Assembly: GCF_055900595.2 (NCBI RefSeq) | Contig: NZ_CM148325.1 | DNA: 64,000 bases | Direction: 5' to 3' (one strand) | Part shown: piece after piece, positions 569 to 43,486 of the stretch | Position numbering within the stretch: position 1 is the stretch's first letter | How the letters are laid out: each line of letters starts with the position of its first letter | Made by a program: the position numbers and the translations under genes | The notes under the pieces: model-generated | Told to the model about the DNA's origin: nothing | Seen by the model: only the letters and a program-made list of their open reading frames with translations | Databases searched by the model: none

Positions 569-1813
569 TTAGTTACGCAGGGCGCTATTTGCCAGACGAT
601 CGTCTTCCGCCTGGCAAGCTGCTGCAGTGAACAGCACGTCAGTTGAAGAGTTCAGCGCGGTTTCGCAAGAGTCCTGCAATACGCCGATGATAAAGCCGAC
701 GGCAACCACCTGCATGGCGATATCGTTCGAAATACCGAACATATTACAGGCCAGCGGGATCAGCAGCAGAGAACCACCTGCCACGCCGGACGCACCACAG
801 GCGCACAGAGAAGCAACTACGCTCAACAGCAGCGCCGTTGGTAGATCCACCGGAATACCCAGCGTATTAACCGCAGCCAGCGTCAACACGGTAATGGTGA
901 TTGCTGCGCCCGCCATATTGATCGTTGCACCTAGCGGAATAGAAACGGAATAGGTATCACGATCCAGATTCAGCTTTTCACACAGCGCCATATTCACCGG
1001 AATGTTCGCCGCAGAGCTGCGGGTGAAGAAGGCGTACACGCCGCTTTCGCGCAGGCACAGCAGCACCAGCGGGAACGGGTTACGACGAATTTTCCACCAT
1101 ACCAGCAGCGGGTTAACCACCAACGCCACCAGCAACATACAGCCAACCAGCACCACCAGCAGTTGCGCGTAGCCCCACAGGGTGGAGAAACCGGTGGTTG
1201 CCAGCGTTGAAGCTACCAGACCAAAAATACCGATTGGTGCGAAACGAATGACCAGTTTCACCATAAAGGTGACGGCATTCGACATATCATTGACCAGGTT
1301 TTTAGTGGTTTCGTTACCGTGACGCAGTGCAAAACCGAGGCCAATTGCCCACACCAGAATCCCGATGTAGTTACCTTTCAGCAACGCGTCGATGGGGTTG
1401 GAAACCATGCTCATTACCAGCCCACGCATCACTTCTACAATGCCTGACGGTGGCGAAATATCACTCGCGCTACTGGACAAGTGCAGGGTAGAAGGGAAGG
1501 CAAAGCTGAAGACTACCGCGGCCAGAGCAGCAGAGAAGGTGCCCAGCAGATAGAGGAACAGAATAGGGCGAATGTTGGTTTTCTGCCCGTGCTGGTGGTT
1601 AGCAATAGATGCCATTACCAGCATCAGCACCAGAATCGGCGCTACAGCTTTCAGGGCACCAACGAACAAAGTACCTAACAGACCGACAGCTTCAGCCGCC
1701 GGTTTTGAGATCCATGCCAGAAGAATCCCCAGAACAAGGCCGACCAGGATTTGTTTTACCAGGCTGCCATGAGCCAGACGCCGGAATAGCCCCGGTGAAC
1801 GTTGCGTAGTCAT
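569..1813 (-). CDS. sstT: serine/threonine:Na+ symporter SstT
   Basis: 414 aa multi-TM ORF, ATG start, length and N-terminus [10 protein letters not shown] fit SstT. Confidence 0.92.
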
Positions 1814-2135: not shown

Positions 2136-3101
2136 TCATCCCACCCGCTGCTTATCATGCCGATAATTCACCCAGGCGTTGATAATAAACGTCATCACCA
2201 GAATGCCAAACACCACACCCAGCGAAACGGCGATCGGAATATGGTAGAAGTCGACAATCAGCATCTTGATACCGATAAACACCAGAATCACTGCCAGACC
2301 ATATTTGAGCATCGAGAAACGTTCTGCTACGCCCGCCAGCAGGAAATACATCGCACGCAGGCCGAGGATCGCAAACAGGTTTGAGGTCAGCACAATAAAC
2401 GGATCGGTGGTAACAGCGAAGATAGCCGGAATGCTATCCACGGCGAAAATCACGTCGCTCAACTCCACCAGAATCAGTACCAGCATCAGCGGCGTGGCAT
2501 ACAACAAACCATTCTTACGCACAAAGAAATGCTCGTTGTCGATGGTGTCGGTCATGCGCAAATGACCGCGCAGCCAGCGCACCAGCGGCTTGTCACCAAT
2601 ACCTGATTCATCTTCATGAGCCAGCGCCATCTTCACGCCAGTAAACAGCAGGAAGGCACCGAAGATATACAGGATCCAGTCGAACTGCGAAATCAGCCAG
2701 CTGCCAGTGAAGATCATGATGGTACGCAGAACAATCGCCCCGAGTACGCCATACACGAGCACGCGGCGTTGTAATGCCGCCGGAACAGAGAAATAGCTGA
2801 ACAACATCAGCCAGACGAAGACGTTATCGACCGCCAGTGATTTCTCAATCAGATAACCCGTGAGGAAGGCCAATGCCTGAGGGTCCGCGACTTCGCGCCC
2901 CTGTGTCTGCGCCAGATACCACCAGAAAGCGGCATTAAACAATAACGACAGTGTCACCCAGACCAGCGACCAGGCCGCAGCCTGTTTCATGGTCATGGCA
3001 TGTGCCCCGCGACGCCCCTGCAACAACAGGTCGATAGCCAGCATAATGACGACAACAACAGCGAATCCGCCCCATAGCAACGGCGTGCCGACAGTATTCA
3101 T
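2136..3101 (-). CDS. alx: TerC-family membrane protein Alx
   Basis: 321 aa TerC-like ORF preceded by a long structured leader. Confidence 0.9.
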
Positions 3102-3300
3102 AGAAGTTCCTTACACATAAAAAAACGGCCAACGTCGGAAGACGTCAGCCGCTGCTTTTTATGCATAGACCTCGCCTTCCGGCAAGGTCTCACTTACAAC
3201 AAAAAAGGAATACGTCTGCGTATTCCTTTCGGGTTGCCCGGTGACCGGATGTGGTTTTTCACACATCGTAATGACGATCGACCGGCAATGAAGTTACTCC
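3102..3300 (-). promoter_or_regulatory. sraF: alx 5' leader, yybP-ykoY (Mn/pH-responsive) riboswitch-like element with terminator hairpins
   Basis: minus-strand leader contains AAAGGGGAGUA core, a perfect hairpin AGGAAUACG-CAGA-CGUAUUCCU followed by U6, and a second hairpin plus U7 abutting the alx start. Confidence 0.5.
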
Positions 3301-3383
3301 CCTTTGCAGGTAACAAAGTATGACAGACCATTCGGTCAGTCAATGGTCTGTTACATCCCTTTTACACTGTTTTACTTTGGCTA

Positions 3384-4370
3384 TTATAGTTTTACGCTAT
3401 CTGCCGGAAAAATCACCCCGGTCTGGCGGCGGATCTCGGTCAGCAGCCTGGCGGTGATACGACTGACCGCCAGCCCTGGATGATCTACCAGATGTTCATC
3501 CACCAGGGTAGCGAACAGCTCTGCTTCGTACAGCATGGTATTAATATGCTGCGGTTGGGTAAGATCCTGCATCTGGCTGCCGCGCGGCACATAGCAAACT
3601 TTCTGGCATTCAGACAGTTTTTCAATCACCAGCGATCCCGCTTCGCCCTGAATCTCACTTGCCAGCACAGAATCACTGACCTTTGAGTGCTGCAAGGTAA
3701 CGCTGAAATCACCGTAATCCATCACCACCACGCCGTGGGCATCCACACCACTTGCCAGCAAACTGGCGGTTGCCTGCACGCTTTTCGGTTCACCAAATAA
3801 CGCCACCGCCGACGCCAGACAGTAAAAGCCGATATCCATAATTGAACCGTTGGAGAATGCCGGATTGAAGGTGTTGGGATTCTCGCCGTCCAGATAACGT
3901 TGATATCGCGAGGAATATTGGCAATAGTTGAAAAAGACTTTACGCAATTTGCCAACTTTCGGCAGTACCTGGCGTAACAAATGGAAATTCGGCAGGCTGG
4001 CGGTTTTAAATGCCTCAAACAGCACCACCTGATTTTCCCGCGCACAGGCAATGGCGGCATCCACTTCCGCCAGATTCGACGCCAGCGGTTTCTCGCAAAT
4101 CACATGAATTTTATGGCTAAGGAAAAGTTGTGTCTGGGAAAAGTGCAGGGCATTCGGGCTGGCAATATACACCGCGTCAATAGCATCACTTTCTGCCATC
4201 GCTTCCAGCGACGTAAACAGATGCTCGACAGAAAAATCATTGGCGAAGTGCTGGGCCTTTTCAAGGCTGCGGGAATAGACAGCGGTTAACTTGTATTTAC
4301 CGCTCTCATGGGCGGCCTCGACGAACTGGCGGGTGATCCAGTTCGTGCCAATCACAGCGAAACGTATCAT
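3384..4370 (-). CDS. ygjR: Gfo/Idh/MocA-family oxidoreductase YgjR
   Basis: ORF 3384..4388; start placed at internal ATG (MIRFAVIGTNWI, Rossmann N-terminus), 328 aa. Confidence 0.85.
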   Translation of the reverse strand: MIRFAVIGTNWITRQFVEAAHESGKYKLTAVYSRSLEKAQHFANDFSVEHLFTSLEAMAESDAIDAVYIASPNALHFSQTQLFLSHKIHVICEKPLASNLAEVDAAIACARENQVVLFEAFKTASLPNFHLLRQVLPKVGKLRKVFFNYCQYSSRYQRYLDGENPNTFNPAFSNGSIMDIGFYCLASAVALFGEPKSVQATASLLASGVDAHGVVVMDYGDFSVTLQHSKVSDSVLASEIQGEAGSLVIEKLSECQKVCYVPRGSQMQDLTQPQHINTMLYEAELFATLVDEHLVDHPGLAVSRITARLLTEIRRQTGVIFPADSVKL

Positions 4371-4448
4371 AACGCGTGGATACTCCATAAAGGGATTCTG
4401 CCGTCAATGTAGCACGCCTTTTTCATCTTCGACGTGCGCAGATACGCA

Positions 4449-36817: not shown

Positions 36818-37186
36818 ATGGATATTGTATTTATAGAGCAACTTTCGGTAATCACCACTATTGGTGTTTACGACTGGGAACAGACCATCGAACAGAAGTT
36901 AGTGTTTGATATCGAAATGGCGTGGGATAACCGTAAAGCGGCGAAAAGTGATGATGTGGCGGATTGCCTCAGTTACGCTGACATTGCAGAAACGGTAGTC
37001 AGCCACGTCGAGGGCGCGCGTTTTGCGCTGGTGGAACGTGTGGCGGAAGAGGTGGCGGAGCTGCTGTTAGCACGCTTCAACTCGCCGTGGGTGCGTATCA
37101 AACTCAGCAAGCCAGGCGCAGTGGCGCGGGCGGCGAATGTTGGCGTCATCATTGAGCGTGGCAATAATCTGAAAGAAAATAATTAA
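36818..37186 (+). CDS. folB: dihydroneopterin aldolase FolB
   Basis: ATG at 36818 (122 aa); ORF track begins one codon earlier at GTG. Confidence 0.92.
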   Translation: MDIVFIEQLSVITTIGVYDWEQTIEQKLVFDIEMAWDNRKAAKSDDVADCLSYADIAETVVSHVEGARFALVERVAEEVAELLLARFNSPWVRIKLSKPGAVARAANVGVIIERGNNLKENN

Positions 37187-38178: not shown

Positions 38179-39417
38179 TTAATCAGGCTTTGGACAACGT
38201 TGTTCCTTCCAGCTGGCTACCGCCGCAATCCGCCGTCGGGTCAGCTCTTCGCGAATCTCCACACCTTTAAATCCCGCTTCAACGACGGCTTTTGTCGGCA
38301 CTGACTGTGCCACTTCCCAGGCTTCGCGCAACCAGCGGCCTTGCGGGTAGTCCGCTGATTCAAAACCGGTTCTGCCGCGCACATCAGCCTCGCTGGTCAG
38401 CGCCAGTTGCTCGACACGCTGCGGTTTACGCCAGGCGTCGATGGAATCAAATAGTTTGACGATGGTTTTTGGGTTCAGCATTGGGAAGGTGTGGATGAGA
38501 TCGTGAAACTCAGCCACCAGTCTGGCTAAATCGCGAATTTCATTTGGCACGCGCAGACGCTGGCATAGTTGTTCCACTAACTTCACACCCACCGGGCCAT
38601 GACCATGATGACGCGGCCAAAGTTCTGGCGGCGTCAGTCCTTTACCGAGATCGTGGCATAGCGTTGCGAAACGGACATCGACCTGCGGACTTAGCATCGC
38701 CGCCATTGAGAGCGTCATTAAGGTGTGAATACCGGTGTCGATTTCCGGATGCCACTTGGCAGGGGCCGGAACGCCAAACAGGGCGTCAATTTCCGGGAAT
38801 AAAACGCGCAGTGCGCCGCAATCGCGCAGTACCTGGAAGAACACCTGGGGATTGCGGGTAGTGAGGGCGCTTTCCGTCTCTTTCCACACCCGTTCAGGCG
38901 TCAGGTGTTCCAGTTCACCCGCGTGGGTCATCTCGCGCATCAGCGCCAGAGTTTCATCGGCAATACGAAAACCGAGGTGGGCATAACGCGCAGCAAAACG
39001 CGCCACGCGCAGTACGCGTAACGGATCTTCGCCAAAAGCGGGGGAAACATGGCGCAACAGACGATTTTGCAGATCGCCCAGACCGTTGTACGGGTCGATA
39101 ATCTCGCCGTTATCGTCCTGGGCCAGCGCATTAATGGTCAGATCGCGCCGCTTAAGATCATCTTCCAGCGTGACATCCGGTGCGGCATAGCAGGTAAAAC
39201 CGGTGTAACCGGAACCGGATTTCCGTTCGGTACGTGCCAGCGCATACTCTTCATGCGTTTGCGGATGCAGAAAAACAGGAAAATCGCGGCCTACCTGCTG
39301 GTAGCCCGCGTCGAGCATCTCCTGTGGCGTACTACCGACTACCACCCAATCTCTGTCTTTGACCGGTAGCCCTAACAATGCATCCCGAACAGCACCACCG
39401 ACCAGATAAATCTTCAC
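38179..39417 (-). CDS. cca: tRNA nucleotidyltransferase (CCA-adding enzyme) with HD domain
   Basis: 412 aa, GTG start (plus CAC at 39415-39417), [17 protein letters not shown]-terminus. Confidence 0.93.
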
Positions 39418-39480
39418 GCCATCATCCCTTCGTCAAATACACAATTCCTAATAATAAGACAGTGCAACGAAGAAGGCGAT

Positions 39481-40101
39481 TTAGTTCATCCAGCGATCTT
39501 TACGTTTGCGCGTTGGGATCAGGTGCGGCAGTACCAGACCGAGCAGCAAGCCAAGCCCCAGCACGCCGCCACCATACATAAACCACTGCATGATGATGGT
39601 GCGCTGTTTGTCATCCAGCTGCACGCTGGCGGCATCGACCTTTTTCTGCGCGACAATCAGCTCGTTTTTCAGTTTCTGATTTTCTTCTTTTAACCCGTTG
39701 ATCACGCTGTCGCTCTGCGCCACTTTTTGCTGCATTTCTGCGGTGCGCTGATTCCAGGTGTTATCGATATTGGTGAGCTTATCGGTCAGGGTTTTGACCT
39801 GATTTTCCAGATCTGGCACACGGGAGCGCAGGCTTGGCTCTGTGCTAAGTTGTTTCAACGGGATCCAGGCAGTACGGCCAGAGCTGTCTTTCACCTGGGC
39901 ATAATTGGTGTTGGCGTCAGTTTGTAATAAGGTCACTTCCTCGCCGGCGTTAACCGTGCCCACGAGGCGATAATGGTCTCCCGGACCGCTACGGACCCAG
40001 GTATTCAGTTCGTCAGAAACATAGCGCGTTTCTTCAGCGTGTGAGACGGCAGTGGCGCTAAGCGCGAGTAAAGTTAATCCGATCAGGCGTAATTTTGGCA
40101 T
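39481..40101 (-). CDS. ygiM: membrane-anchored SH3-domain protein YgiM
   Basis: 206 aa with signal/anchor, coiled-coil segment and C-terminal TM helix. Confidence 0.88.
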   Translation of the reverse strand: MPKLRLIGLTLLALSATAVSHAEETRYVSDELNTWVRSGPGDHYRLVGTVNAGEEVTLLQTDANTNYAQVKDSSGRTAWIPLKQLSTEPSLRSRVPDLENQVKTLTDKLTNIDNTWNQRTAEMQQKVAQSDSVINGLKEENQKLKNELIVAQKKVDAASVQLDDKQRTIIMQWFMYGGGVLGLGLLLGLVLPHLIPTRKRKDRWMN

Positions 40102-40443
40102 CAGGCTGTCGTTATTGTCATGGAAAGTGGAACGATAGTAGTGGCATCAGTGTCGCTACGCAAAGCATTCGACATCAATCGGAATCCTCTGTGTCAGGTC
40201 TTGCCACTGCTTCAAACTTTTACGCCCGTCAAATTGCCCGTTGCATGGCAATTTGGCGCAAAATACTATCTACTGACAAAAAAGATCGCATTAAGTTCGC
40301 CGTTCATCGTCACTTATGTGACATAACCGATAAGTAAAGGCCTTGACATCCTCCCCCACCTTCGCGCAAAGCGACTCAGGAGGGGGATTCCCTTGTCAGG
40401 GTAGCAATACGTTGCCGCATTGCCCGGTTCCTCGCTCGACGGC

Positions 40444-41649
40444 TTACGCCGCCTTACGGGCGCGTCCTTTACGGACTGACGGCAATATTTGTCCTGCCGC
40501 CATGACTTCAAAACCTGCTGTTAATATATTGCGAGCGCCGTTTACATCGGCGTTTGCCGTATAGCCGCACGCGGTACAGATAAAGCTCGCCTGCGTCCTG
40601 CGGTTATTTTTCGATGTATGCCCACAACATGCGCATTTCTGACTGGTGTACGCCGGATTAATCGCCAGCACATCACCGCCGCGCCATGCCTGCTTATATT
40701 CGAGCTGGCGGCGCATTTCTGCCCAGCCCTGATCCAGTATCGCCCGGTTAAGACCTGATTTTGCCGCGACGTTGCGCCCCGGCTGGTCTACCGTACCCGC
40801 TGCTGATTTTGACATGTTCGAAACCTTTAAATCCTCAATGACTATCATCGCGTGGTTTTTGCTGATCGTCGTCGTGGTTTTATGAAGGTAATCGCGGCGG
40901 ATGTTTGCGATATGAGAGTGGAAACGGGAAATCTTCGCTTTCTGCTTTTTCCAGTTGGCGGAGAATTTAACCATCCGGGCCAGACGGCGCTGTAAGCGAG
41001 CCAGCTTATCCTGATTTTTTTTAAAGCTGTTTACCGGTTCAAAGACCGTGCCGTCTGAAAGTGTTGCCAGCTTTGTTATACCTGCATCCAGGCCTATTGC
41101 GCTGGTCGATGCGTGAATCGGATCGGTAACAGCTAATTCGACCTGAAAAGACACATACCAGTGTCCGGCATGCTGGCTGATGGTGCAATTTTTAATGACG
41201 CCTTCAATCTTCCGGGACTGACGAAATTTAACCCAGCCCAGTCCTGACGAGAGTTTCACACGGCCATAATCCAGCCCACAATATTTGCTGAAATTGACGA
41301 ACCGGATAGAGTCGCAGCCTTTGGTTTTCTTTTTGAAAACGGGCTTTTCAGCCGTCAGGGATTTATCAAAACAGCGATCCCATGCGCTCCGCAGGTCTTT
41401 CAGTTTCTGCTGGAGGTTGTCAGTGTAACCCTCAGCAAGAAAGGCCAGCTCAGGGAGTTTTTTCCAGCCCGTAAGTCGTTTATTCAGGTCGAAAGCTGAC
41501 GGAATTTTTCCGCCCGCGTCATGAATGCTCAGTGTTTCATTCAGTGCATAGTTCCAGACAAAGCGAGCGCAACCGCACAACTGACGCAACCTTTGCGCCT
41601 GCTGGTCAGTGGGGTAGAGCCTGTATTTATATGCTTTCTGGATTAACAT
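40444..41649 (-). CDS. tnpB: TnpB (OrfB) RuvC-like nuclease, IS605 family
   Basis: 401 aa; N-terminus MLIQKAYKYRLYPT; RuvC D (IGLDAG), E (IVIEDL), D (NADVNGA) residues and CxxC...CxxC zinc finger all present. Confidence 0.9.
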   Translation of the reverse strand: MLIQKAYKYRLYPTDQQAQRLRQLCGCARFVWNYALNETLSIHDAGGKIPSAFDLNKRLTGWKKLPELAFLAEGYTDNLQQKLKDLRSAWDRCFDKSLTAEKPVFKKKTKGCDSIRFVNFSKYCGLDYGRVKLSSGLGWVKFRQSRKIEGVIKNCTISQHAGHWYVSFQVELAVTDPIHASTSAIGLDAGITKLATLSDGTVFEPVNSFKKNQDKLARLQRRLARMVKFSANWKKQKAKISRFHSHIANIRRDYLHKTTTTISKNHAMIVIEDLKVSNMSKSAAGTVDQPGRNVAAKSGLNRAILDQGWAEMRRQLEYKQAWRGGDVLAINPAYTSQKCACCGHTSKNNRRTQASFICTACGYTANADVNGARNILTAGFEVMAAGQILPSVRKGRARKAA

Positions 41650-41715
41650 TTTGCATTCAGTATGTGGTTATTTAGAATGTACAATATATCCACATTTTTT
41701 TGGGAGGATCAATAC

Positions 41716-42114
41716 GTGTGCGAAATCAATCGTTCACGCTATTCAGCTTACCTGTTGCATGTTCACGTTGTTTTTATGACAAAATACCGCCGTCCAGTTT
41801 TTGGTGAATTGCATCATGCAAACATGCGTCAGTATGTAGCGGAGGTATGCGCGGACTTTGGCGCCGAGTTAAAGGAATGTGACGGCGAGGCAGATCATGT
41901 TCACATGCTGATTGAATACCCACCGTTGGTGCAACTCACAAAGCTGGTAAACAGCCTTAAGTCCGTTACCAGTAGGCGGCTGCGGAATGATTTTATTGAT
42001 TTGCGCGCCGCGTATTCAAAGCCCGTACTCTGGTCACGCTCTTATTTCATCGGTTCATGTGGTGGAGCACCGCTGGAAGTTGTGAAAAAGTATATTCAGA
42101 ATCAGCGTGGCTGA
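41716..42114 (+). CDS. tnpA: TnpA Y1 (HuH) transposase, IS200/IS605 family
   Basis: HVHMLIEYPP HuH motif and catalytic Tyr in WSRSYFIGSCGG; start placed at GTG 41716 after GGGAGGA RBS (132 aa); first in-frame ATG is at 41662. Confidence 0.82.
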   Translation: MCEINRSRYSAYLLHVHVVFMTKYRRPVFGELHHANMRQYVAEVCADFGAELKECDGEADHVHMLIEYPPLVQLTKLVNSLKSVTSRRLRNDFIDLRAAYSKPVLWSRSYFIGSCGGAPLEVVKKYIQNQRG

Positions 42115-42184
42115 TAAACTGCGGGCTTAACAGCCCAAATTCCCCTCCCGCCTACGTTGGGGGGGAGTACCCAGTGGAGGAAGG

Positions 42185-43486
42185 ATGGCTCAGGAAATCG
42201 AATTAAAGTTTATTGTTAATCACAGTGCCGTTGAGGCGTTGCGTGACCATCTCAATACGCTGGGCGGCGAGCACCATGACCCCGTGCAGTTGCTGAATAT
42301 TTACTACGAAACGCTGGATAACTGGCTGCGTGGGCACGACATGGGCTTACGTATCCGTGGCGAAAACGGTCGCTATGAGATGACCATGAAAGTTGCAGGA
42401 AGAGTGACAGGCGGCTTACACCAGCGCCCGGAATATAACGTGGCTTTGAGCGAACCGACGCTCGACCTGGCGCAGTTACCGACGGAAGTCTGGCCGAACG
42501 GCGAATTGCCTGCCGATCTCGCTTCCCGCGTACAACCGCTGTTCAGCACCGATTTTTATCGCGAAAAGTGGCTGGTAGAGGTCGATGGTAGCCAAATTGA
42601 AATCGCTCTCGACCAGGGGGAAGTGAAAGCGGGGGAATTTGCTGAGCCTATCTGCGAGCTTGAACTGGAACTGCTTAGCGGCGACACGCGCGCCGTGCTG
42701 AAACTGGCGAACCAACTGGTATCGCAAACCGGATTACGTCAGGGCAGCCTGAGCAAAGCCGCGCGCGGCTATCATCTGGCGCAGGGCAATCCCGCGCGTG
42801 AAATCAAACCGACCACCATTTTGCATGTTGCGGCAAAAGCCGATGTGGAACAGGGGCTGGAAGCGGCGCTCGAGCTGGCGTTAGCGCAATGGCAGTATCA
42901 TGAAGAACTGTGGGTCCGCGGCAACGATGCGGCGAAAGAGCAAGTGCTGGCTGCCATTGGCCTGGTCCGTCATACGCTGATGCTGTTCGGTGGCATTGTG
43001 CCGCGTAAAGCGAGCACTCACTTACGTGACCTGCTGACTCAATGCGAAGCGACCATCGCATCTGCGGTGTCTGCCGTAACGGCGGTCTACTCTACCGAAA
43101 CGGCGATGGCGAAGCTGGCGTTGACCGAATGGCTGGTAAGCAAAGCCTGGCAGCCGTTTTTAGATGCCAAAGCGCAGGGCAAAATCAGCGATTCTTTCAA
43201 ACGCTTTGCCGATATCCATCTTTCCCGCCATGCCGCTGAACTGAAAAGCGTTTTCTGCCAGCCATTAGGCGATCGCTACCGTGACCAATTGCCGCGCCTG
43301 ACGCGTGACATTGACTCAATATTGTTGCTGGCGGGTTACTACGATCCTCTCGTCGCGCAAGCCTGGCTGGAGAACTGGCAGGGACTGCGTCATGCCATTG
43401 CGACCGGGCAACGCATTGAAATTGAACATTTCCGTAATGAGGCAAACAATCAGGAACCGTTCTGGTTGCACAGCGGAAAACGTTAA
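42185..43486 (+). CDS. ygiF: inorganic triphosphatase YgiF (CYTH plus CHAD)
   Basis: 433 aa, N-terminal CYTH EIELKF motif; GGAGG RBS. Confidence 0.9.

Follow-up and report, generated by a model that had tools for sequence, protein, structure and literature searches.

Insertion sequences (IS) of the IS200/IS605 family excise precisely and leave behind a scarless empty site, as established for IS608 of Helicobacter pylori and ISDra2 of Deinococcus radiodurans. IS608, whose TnpA is a Y1 HuH transposase, carries subterminal hairpins, inserts 3' of a tetranucleotide without duplicating it and has a right end that finishes in TCAA, while the TnpB of ISDra2 works with a structured right-end element RNA (reRNA, or omega-RNA) that covers the 3' end of tnpB and the right end of the transposon, the transposon-associated motif (TAM) of the nuclease being the target motif of the transposon itself. 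The element considered here lies between ygiM and ygiF in a 64,000-nucleotide stretch of Escherichia coli DNA (contig NZ_CM148325.1 of RefSeq assembly GCF_055900595.2; hereafter the window) and resembles both. It is very probably an intact and autonomous copy of ISEc41, a catalogued member of the IS605 group of the family, that would act by the mechanism proposed below. It should be emphasized that as an object the element adds nothing new, as it is a catalogued IS, belongs to a well-understood family and is annotated in RefSeq. The value of the locus is modest and lies in the definition of the ends, TAM and guide of the element, in its position relative to ygiF, and in the contrast between its divergence and that of the surrounding DNA.

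The identification as ISEc41 rests on the RefSeq/PGAP naming of an identical TnpA (WP_000266197.1 / WP_000266196.1), which is described as an 'IS200/IS605-like element ISEc41 family transposase'; the RefSeq name for the tnpB gene is 'RNA-guided endonuclease InsQ/TnpB family protein'. The locus displays the features of the family: a Y1 HuH TnpA, a tnpB that points towards the right end, a fixed target tetranucleotide that is not duplicated, and subterminal hairpins in place of terminal inverted repeats. Compared with the copy in E. coli Nissle 1917 that of the window has nine substitutions and one difference in homopolymer length, which together alter three residues of TnpB and one in the N-terminal extension of TnpA. 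The only mentions of ISEc41 found in the literature are entries in the lists of three genome surveys; it is given as an IS match in surveys of E. coli genomes (PMC10383658, PMC9756432).

Among described elements, IS608 differs from ISEc41 in its target, TTAC as opposed to CCAT, and in the co-directional arrangement of tnpA and tnpB, which are divergent in ISEc41, while ISDra2 differs in its TAM, TTGAT against the predicted CCAT, and likewise lacks the divergent placement of tnpA seen in ISEc41. IS609 of E. coli K-12 (insQ/ydcM, with the tnpA pseudogene yncK) likewise has divergent tnpA and tnpB genes, and its right end (locus L044, K-12, 2662-4409) terminates in AGGATGTCAA, as does that of ISEc41. 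IS609, however, occupies another locus, its tnpA has decayed in K-12 and its left end is unrelated. The comparison with the K-12 InsQ that the initial annotation had recommended shows that the protein is a cousin only, being 59% identical to the TnpB of the window over 389 amino acids. IS609 as annotated follows ...TTTAT, whereas ISEc41 follows CCAT, and thus the two elements appear, from their sequences, to use different target motifs. The one TnpB paper found that names IS609 contained no relevant data. Full-length relatives on plasmids (Citrobacter pCf.1-4 and Klebsiella IncFIB/IncHI1B) share 74-77% nucleotide identity, the same ends and the CCAT target with ISEc41, but are distinct IS species that are plasmid-borne and often multi-copy or nested.

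Base-by-base comparison of the window with E. coli K-12 MG1655, where ygiM and ygiF are separated by 241 bp that contain neither tnpA nor tnpB, revealed one clean insert of 1,842 bp that directly abuts the start codon of ygiF. With the slash marking the point of insertion, the empty site of K-12 reads ...TAAAGGCC/ATGGCTCAG, while the two junctions in the window read ...TAAAGGCC/TTGACATCC (left) and ...GGAGGAAGG/ATGGCTCAG (right). Neither target duplication nor ambiguity in the placement of the junctions is evident, GGCC/ATGG in K-12 being GGCC/element/ATGG in the window. The initial annotation, which worked from the sequence of the window only, had proposed an IS605-family element with divergent tnpA and tnpB genes in an interval that is short in K-12. 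The open reading frames (ORFs), family models and the empty site bear out this proposal, and the element is indeed absent from this position in K-12. The extent that had been given, 40335-42180, captured the insertion but not its ends, which were misplaced by 8 bp on the left and 4 bp on the right; the comparison with K-12 places them exactly at 40343 and 42184, with a seamless empty site.

These boundaries are not peculiar to this locus but are common to relatives of the element at unrelated sites. In relatives taken from plasmids (loci L004-L007) and from a set in which each species is represented by a single genome (36 loci), the terminus ...GGAGGATGTCAA is retained on the tnpB-sense strand in approximately 37 distinct elements, with TnpB identities as low as 47%, while the sequence beyond it is unrelated in each. 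The right end of the element is thus at 40343, the left end is at 42184, and the top strand corresponds to the tnpB-sense strand (the minus strand of the window). tnpB points towards the right end, from which its 3' end is separated by 101 bp. The termini, CCTTCCTCC... and ...GGATGTCAA, are not inverted repeats of each other; instead, each end contains a subterminal hairpin, both in the same orientation, the one at the right being followed by the conserved terminus at 40343-40354. At the left end, the length of the C/G run in the hairpin loop varies between lineages of E. coli: the homopolymer (42159-42165, compared with locus L002) comprises seven G residues in the strain group of the window and six in that of Nissle 1917.

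The tetranucleotide CCAT precedes the left end in all six of the independent insertions compared, namely that in the window and those of five close relatives (a Citrobacter plasmid, two different sites on Klebsiella-type plasmids, Aeromonas/Rhodocyclaceae and Xenorhabdus), while the base at position -5 varies. At the ygiM-ygiF locus this CCAT reads ATGG on the opposite strand, at the start of ygiF, and occurs once in the empty site of K-12, which indicates that it is the target and not a part of the element. This answers the suggestion of the initial annotation that a target motif be sought at the left end. The left-end hairpin is preceded by GGTA, each base of which would pair with the corresponding base of CCAT. 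In IS608 the tetranucleotide at which cleavage occurs pairs with bases that lie 5' of the foot of the hairpin; the possible pairing in ISEc41 is not relied on here.

Both proteins of the window copy appear to be intact. TnpB matches the NCBIfam model guided_TnpB over its full length (positions 1-388/389; 356 bits, with a cut-off of 100) and the Pfam families HTH_OrfB_IS605, OrfB_IS605 and Cas12f1-like_TNB. Alignment with ISDra2 TnpB (PDB 8H1J/8EXA, E = 7e-47) aligns the fold-defining domains of the two proteins, places D188, E272 and D368 on the catalytic residues D191, E278 and D361, and places C339, C342, C358 and C361 on the cysteines of the zinc finger, so that the CxxC...CxxC pattern is kept. 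These residues agree with the earlier description of an intact RuvC D-E-D triad and zinc finger and, together with the full-length family match, support the view that the protein is a candidate RNA-guided nuclease of the OMEGA type (for obligate mobile element-guided activity). It could be argued that TnpB is a nuclease-dead regulator resembling TldR. This possibility was rejected in view of the intact triad and the presence of a complete IS with tnpA. With respect to TnpA, the match to NCBIfam transpos_IS200 (139.5 bits, cut-off 55) and the alignment with IS608 TnpA (PDB 2A6M/2VJV, E = 2e-20), in which H79-V-H81, Y144 and Q148 (numbered according to the 150-residue ORF) correspond to H64/H66, Y127 and Q131, establish that the protein is a Y1 HuH transposase. 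The aligned sequence DHVHML is the true HuH motif, and not the N-terminal HVHVVF. The alignments reveal neither a frameshift nor a substitution affecting the RuvC or HuH residues in the window copy.

The annotated start of tnpA is probably too far upstream, and the actual start is more likely GTG 41716, because the match to the family model does not begin before residue 23 of the ORF, the end of a promoter-like -10 box is at 41678, and GGGAGGA precedes this GTG. Promoter-like hexamers, which are consensus matches only, face both ways in the short region that separates the two genes (plus strand, 41650-41678; minus strand, 41712-41683).

If ISEc41 TnpB is guided by an RNA, its scaffold is predicted to extend from the 3' end of tnpB through the right end. 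An alignment of the last 190 nucleotides before the right end in 24 relatives yielded, with RNAalifold, a consensus structure of 31 pairs, 13 of which display compensatory changes. Of the alignment cells assigned to this structure 94.5% can pair, compared with 45-54% when the partners are slid, and the observed values were reached by none of 500 shuffles on any measure. The helices upstream of the right-end hairpin fall within the coding region of tnpB, as expected for an omega-RNA or reRNA. The part of the covariation contributed by the right-end hairpin may just as well be due to a DNA hairpin used by TnpA. The fold of the window copy itself is unusually stable (minimum free energy z = -5.2).

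In the model developed for other TnpB proteins, the guide derives from the flank beyond the right end and the TAM is the target motif of the transposon (PMC8612924; bioRxiv 10.1101/2023.03.14.532601). Applied to the junctions in the window, this model predicts that the guide is the sequence immediately past the right end, 5'-GGCCUUUACUUAUCGG..., and that the TAM is CCAT. In genomes of the K-12 type, the empty ygiM-ygiF site reads exactly CCAT and then GGCCTTTACTTATCGG, and thus the predicted substrate of TnpB is CCAT plus GGCCTTTACTTATCGG..., the very site that the element occupies. A TnpB with a CCAT TAM was not found in the literature search. This TnpB is native to Nissle 1917, CFT073 and ATCC 25922, for which clean ends, a target motif that doubles as the predicted TAM, and a predicted guide are now available. 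In one carrier, WL297 (locus L047, position 3000), the flank base adjoining the right end, which would be position 1 of the guide, has changed from C to T.

A lineage-specific insertion of approximately 22 nucleotides (about 40491-40512; AACAGCAGGTTTTGAAGTCATG on the minus strand) near the 3' end of tnpB distinguishes the window copy from the closest plasmid relatives, and alters the predicted omega-RNA in its 5' part as well as the C-terminal tail of TnpB (...TAGFEVMAAGQILPSVRKGRARKAA). This segment pairs, in the minimum free energy fold, with the terminus of the right end and the first six nucleotides of the predicted guide, although this may be due to chance.

The distribution of ISEc41 was explored by megablast in 5,426 complete E. 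coli genomes. The full element is present in 148 of these, including Nissle 1917, CFT073 and ATCC 25922, at 99.4-100% nucleotide identity, and a 180-bp query that spans the insertion site is split in exactly 148 genomes, demonstrating that every full copy resides at the ygiM-ygiF locus. Ten further genomes contain a relic of 63 bp at the same site (eight were detected by a 45-bp match and ten by the 180-bp query, the latter count being used here), while the remaining matched genomes, roughly 5,270, are empty. In the relic, the initial 45 bp of the element, from the right-end side, and the final 18 bp, from the left-end side, meet at a shared GGGGGA, which indicates that it arose through an internal deletion between two similar hairpin arms. 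It retains GGAGGAAGG before the ATG of ygiF. As GTCAA and not CCAT precedes the target in the relic, this allele should be immune to cutting directed by the predicted TnpB guide.

The mechanism that we propose for ISEc41 is modelled on IS608, ISDra2 and Geobacillus elements of the IS605 family. TnpA would excise and insert the element in the form of its single-stranded top strand ('peel and paste'), and the donor joint left after excision would be a seamless CCAT/GGCC. An omega-RNA or reRNA produced from the 3' end of tnpB and the right end, reading into the flank on the ygiM side, would carry the guide GGCCUUUACUUAUCGG, and TnpB bearing this RNA would cut any empty ygiM-ygiF site, in which the TAM CCAT is followed by the matching target. 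Repair from an occupied copy would then restore the element.

Several observations speak against an element that is intact and active in this manner. No second chromosomal copy or site was detected in any of the 5,426 genomes, and a direct sign of recent transposition within E. coli is thus lacking. In at least one carrier, MS1494 (locus L048, 3102-4306), tnpB is frameshifted. The left-end hairpin of the window copy contains a C.C mismatch at a position where the relatives have G-C, A-T or T-A pairs, and after re-alignment the window copy retains only 30 of 39 consensus RNA pairs; the 22-nucleotide insertion described above lies in both the scaffold and the C-terminal tail of TnpB. Finally, no Rfam family was matched in 39400-43000 at E <= 1, and the case for an omega-RNA therefore rests on the covariation analysis presented here.

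Comparison of the element with its flanks indicates that ISEc41 is much younger than the lineages that carry it. The junctions are identical in eight carriers that represent at least five flank haplotypes. Among these carriers, the element diverges by only 0-0.8%, while divergence reaches 3.6% in the 3 kb to the left and 5.2% in the 3 kb to the right. Relative to Nissle 1917, no other 1.84-kb stretch anywhere in the 64-kb window is as little diverged as the element, which stands at 0.5% while the median is 4.0% and the next-lowest value 1.1%. Thus, the element has been exchanged between lineages into the same site. The window itself is approximately 4% diverged from Nissle 1917 (96.0% identity over 40 kb; loci L051, L002 and L052), and its ygiF-glnE allele is present at >= 99% identity in only 8 of the 5,426 genomes, all of which carry the element at 99.9-100% identity. 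The rarity of this allele and the extent of the divergence indicate that the source strain belongs to a rare and deep lineage of E. coli.

How the element came to occupy the same site in such different backgrounds can be explained in several ways. A tentative possibility, which we hold to be doubtful on present evidence, is that ISEc41 is a site-specific homing element in natural E. coli, its TnpB and omega-RNA being hard-wired to the empty ygiM-ygiF site. TnpB and omega-RNA encoded by incoming carrier DNA would cut the empty site of the recipient, which would be repaired from the incoming copy in the manner of a gene drive. Homing would be consistent with the identical junctions in at least five flank haplotypes, with the contrast in divergence between the element and its flanks both among the carriers and against Nissle 1917, and with the match of the predicted guide and TAM to the empty site. 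If true, it would explain how a transposon with a target of only four nucleotides resides at one chromosomal position in five or more flank haplotypes that differ by 1.5-5%, and the locus, with three natural alleles (empty, full and the 63-bp relic), would provide a natural test of the 'selfish inheritance' of TnpB, for which the contrast in divergence between element and flank could be used. Against homing, the mismatches in the flank begin already 55-130 bp from the left-end boundary, while Chi sites in the correct orientation are first encountered at a distance of 3-4 kb (37027, plus strand; 46479, minus strand), with none within 3 kb. RecBCD-dependent repair should, with Chi so distant, co-convert kilobases of flank, which is not observed, and this weakens the homing model. 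It could also be argued that ordinary recombination, stalling at a heterology of 1.8 kb, could sharpen the boundaries as well. Furthermore, within the strain group to which the window belongs the left flank and the element are similarly diverged (0.3-0.7%), as in vertical descent.

The absence of apparent co-transfer of donor flank would also be accounted for by independent insertions, mediated by TnpA, at this one CCAT, which would be either a hot spot or the sole insertion point that selection tolerates or favours. Indeed, the region over which divergence falls is that of the element together with the 241-bp intergenic region, which is invariant across the species. By simple frequency, a target of four nucleotides is estimated to recur tens of thousands of times in each genome. 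None of the 5,426 genomes, however, has the element at another site, and nothing obvious singles out this CCAT; we therefore regard independent insertion as unlikely. Less plausible still is the view that the element is ancestral at the locus and that genomes resembling K-12 lost it through seamless excision by TnpA. The precision of excision in this family would leave the scarless empty site that is observed, and close relatives within phylogroup B2 do differ in this respect, Nissle 1917 being full and NC101 empty although their right flanks are only 0.37% apart. Around 97% of the genomes, however, are empty, and the lineages are far older than the copies they carry, so that the element cannot have descended vertically from the ancestor of the species. 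That the insert is ancestral DNA deleted in K-12 was rejected as a general explanation, as its boundaries coincide with the conserved ends and target motif of the family and it is far younger than its flanks.

Insertion of ISEc41 immediately before the start codon of ygiF replaces the upstream region of the gene, and probably rewires the expression of ygiF-glnE. tnpA, ygiF and glnE have the same direction, a promoter-like site lies upstream of tnpA, and no terminator-like site was detected between the stop codon of tnpA and the ATG of ygiF. As 1.8 kb now separates ygiF, and probably also glnE, from the native upstream region, ygiF would most likely be transcribed by read-through from tnpA and translated from the GGAGG of the left end, a reasonable reading of the sequence in which the transposon supplies the Shine-Dalgarno element. 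Where the left end of the window copy has GGAGGAAGG at its outer tip, the relatives carry GGAGTAAAG or GAGACAAAAG, and would thus provide a weaker Shine-Dalgarno sequence, which hints that the stronger version (42176-42187) may reflect selection on the tip after insertion.

These considerations also raise the possibility that ISEc41 is effectively immobile and is kept as the promoter and ribosome-binding site of ygiF (and possibly glnE), tnpA and tnpB having merely not yet decayed. The restriction of all 148 carriers to one site with no other chromosomal copy would fit such a scenario, as would the superiority of the GGAGGAAGG tip over the GGAGTAAAG and GAGACAAAAG of the relatives, its exact retention by the relic in ten genomes, the mismatch in the left-end hairpin and the copy with a frameshifted tnpB. 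We consider this improbable, however, as both ORFs and all the catalytic residues are intact in all but one of the copies examined, and divergence between lineages is 4-10 times lower in the element than in its flanks, so that the element has moved between genomes relatively recently and has not remained in stasis. An intact, autonomous ISEc41 thus remains the interpretation that we favour; the features that define it are listed in Table 1.

Table 1. Coordinates of the ISEc41 copy, its parts and its surroundings. Positions are those of the window, except for the relic.
Feature	Position	Strand	Basis
ygiM	39481-40101	-	ORF list and raw sequence
Predicted guide, 5'-GGCCUUUACUUAUCGGUUAU, flank directly 3' of the right end	40323-40342	-	ISDra2/Geobacillus TnpB model applied to the junctions
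Whole ISEc41 element, 1,842 bp	40343-42184	- (top strand = tnpB-sense)	K-12 empty-site comparison, carrier junctions, boundaries of relatives
Predicted omega-RNA scaffold, tnpB 3' end through the right end	40343-40575	-	Consensus structure, covariation
Subterminal right-end hairpin, TCCCCC...GGGGGA with inner CGC/GCG stem	40352-40387	-	z = -3.5; covariation in relatives
tnpB, 401 amino acids, predicted RNA-guided RuvC nuclease	40444-41649	-	ORF, NCBIfam, Pfam, PDB alignment
Short control region separating the divergent tnpB and tnpA	41650-41715	.	Promoter-like hexamers both ways, consensus matches only
tnpA, Y1 HuH transposase, 150 amino acids as ORF	41662-42114	+	ORF, NCBIfam, PDB alignment
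Subterminal left-end hairpin, CTCCC...GGGAG arms	42142-42167	-	Fold and covarying stem positions in relatives
GGAGGAAGG, outer left-end tip, Shine-Dalgarno region before the ygiF ATG	42176-42184	+	Junction; relatives differ
Target motif and predicted TAM, 5'-CCAT-3' (flank, outside the element)	42185-42188	-	Six independent insertions; K-12 empty site
ygiF	42185-43486	+	ORF list and raw sequence
Relic example, same site as window 40343/42184	L003 (E. coli RM14723) 1501-1563		

Two further observations concern the surroundings of ISEc41 and its relatives. Chi (GCTGGTGG) occurs at 13 sites in the window, for example at 37027 (plus strand), 45101 (plus strand) and 46479 (minus strand), compared with 2.2 expected from shuffling; this excess is the normal enrichment of Chi in E. 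coli. On plasmids, truncated, nested or multi-copy relatives of the element are evident in E. coli pA123_1 (locus L005, 2602-3388 and 4062-4754) and in Klebsiella-type plasmids (loci L004 and L007), and one truncated plasmid relative lies approximately 0.7 kb from a CRISPR array and csf2 of a type IV system.

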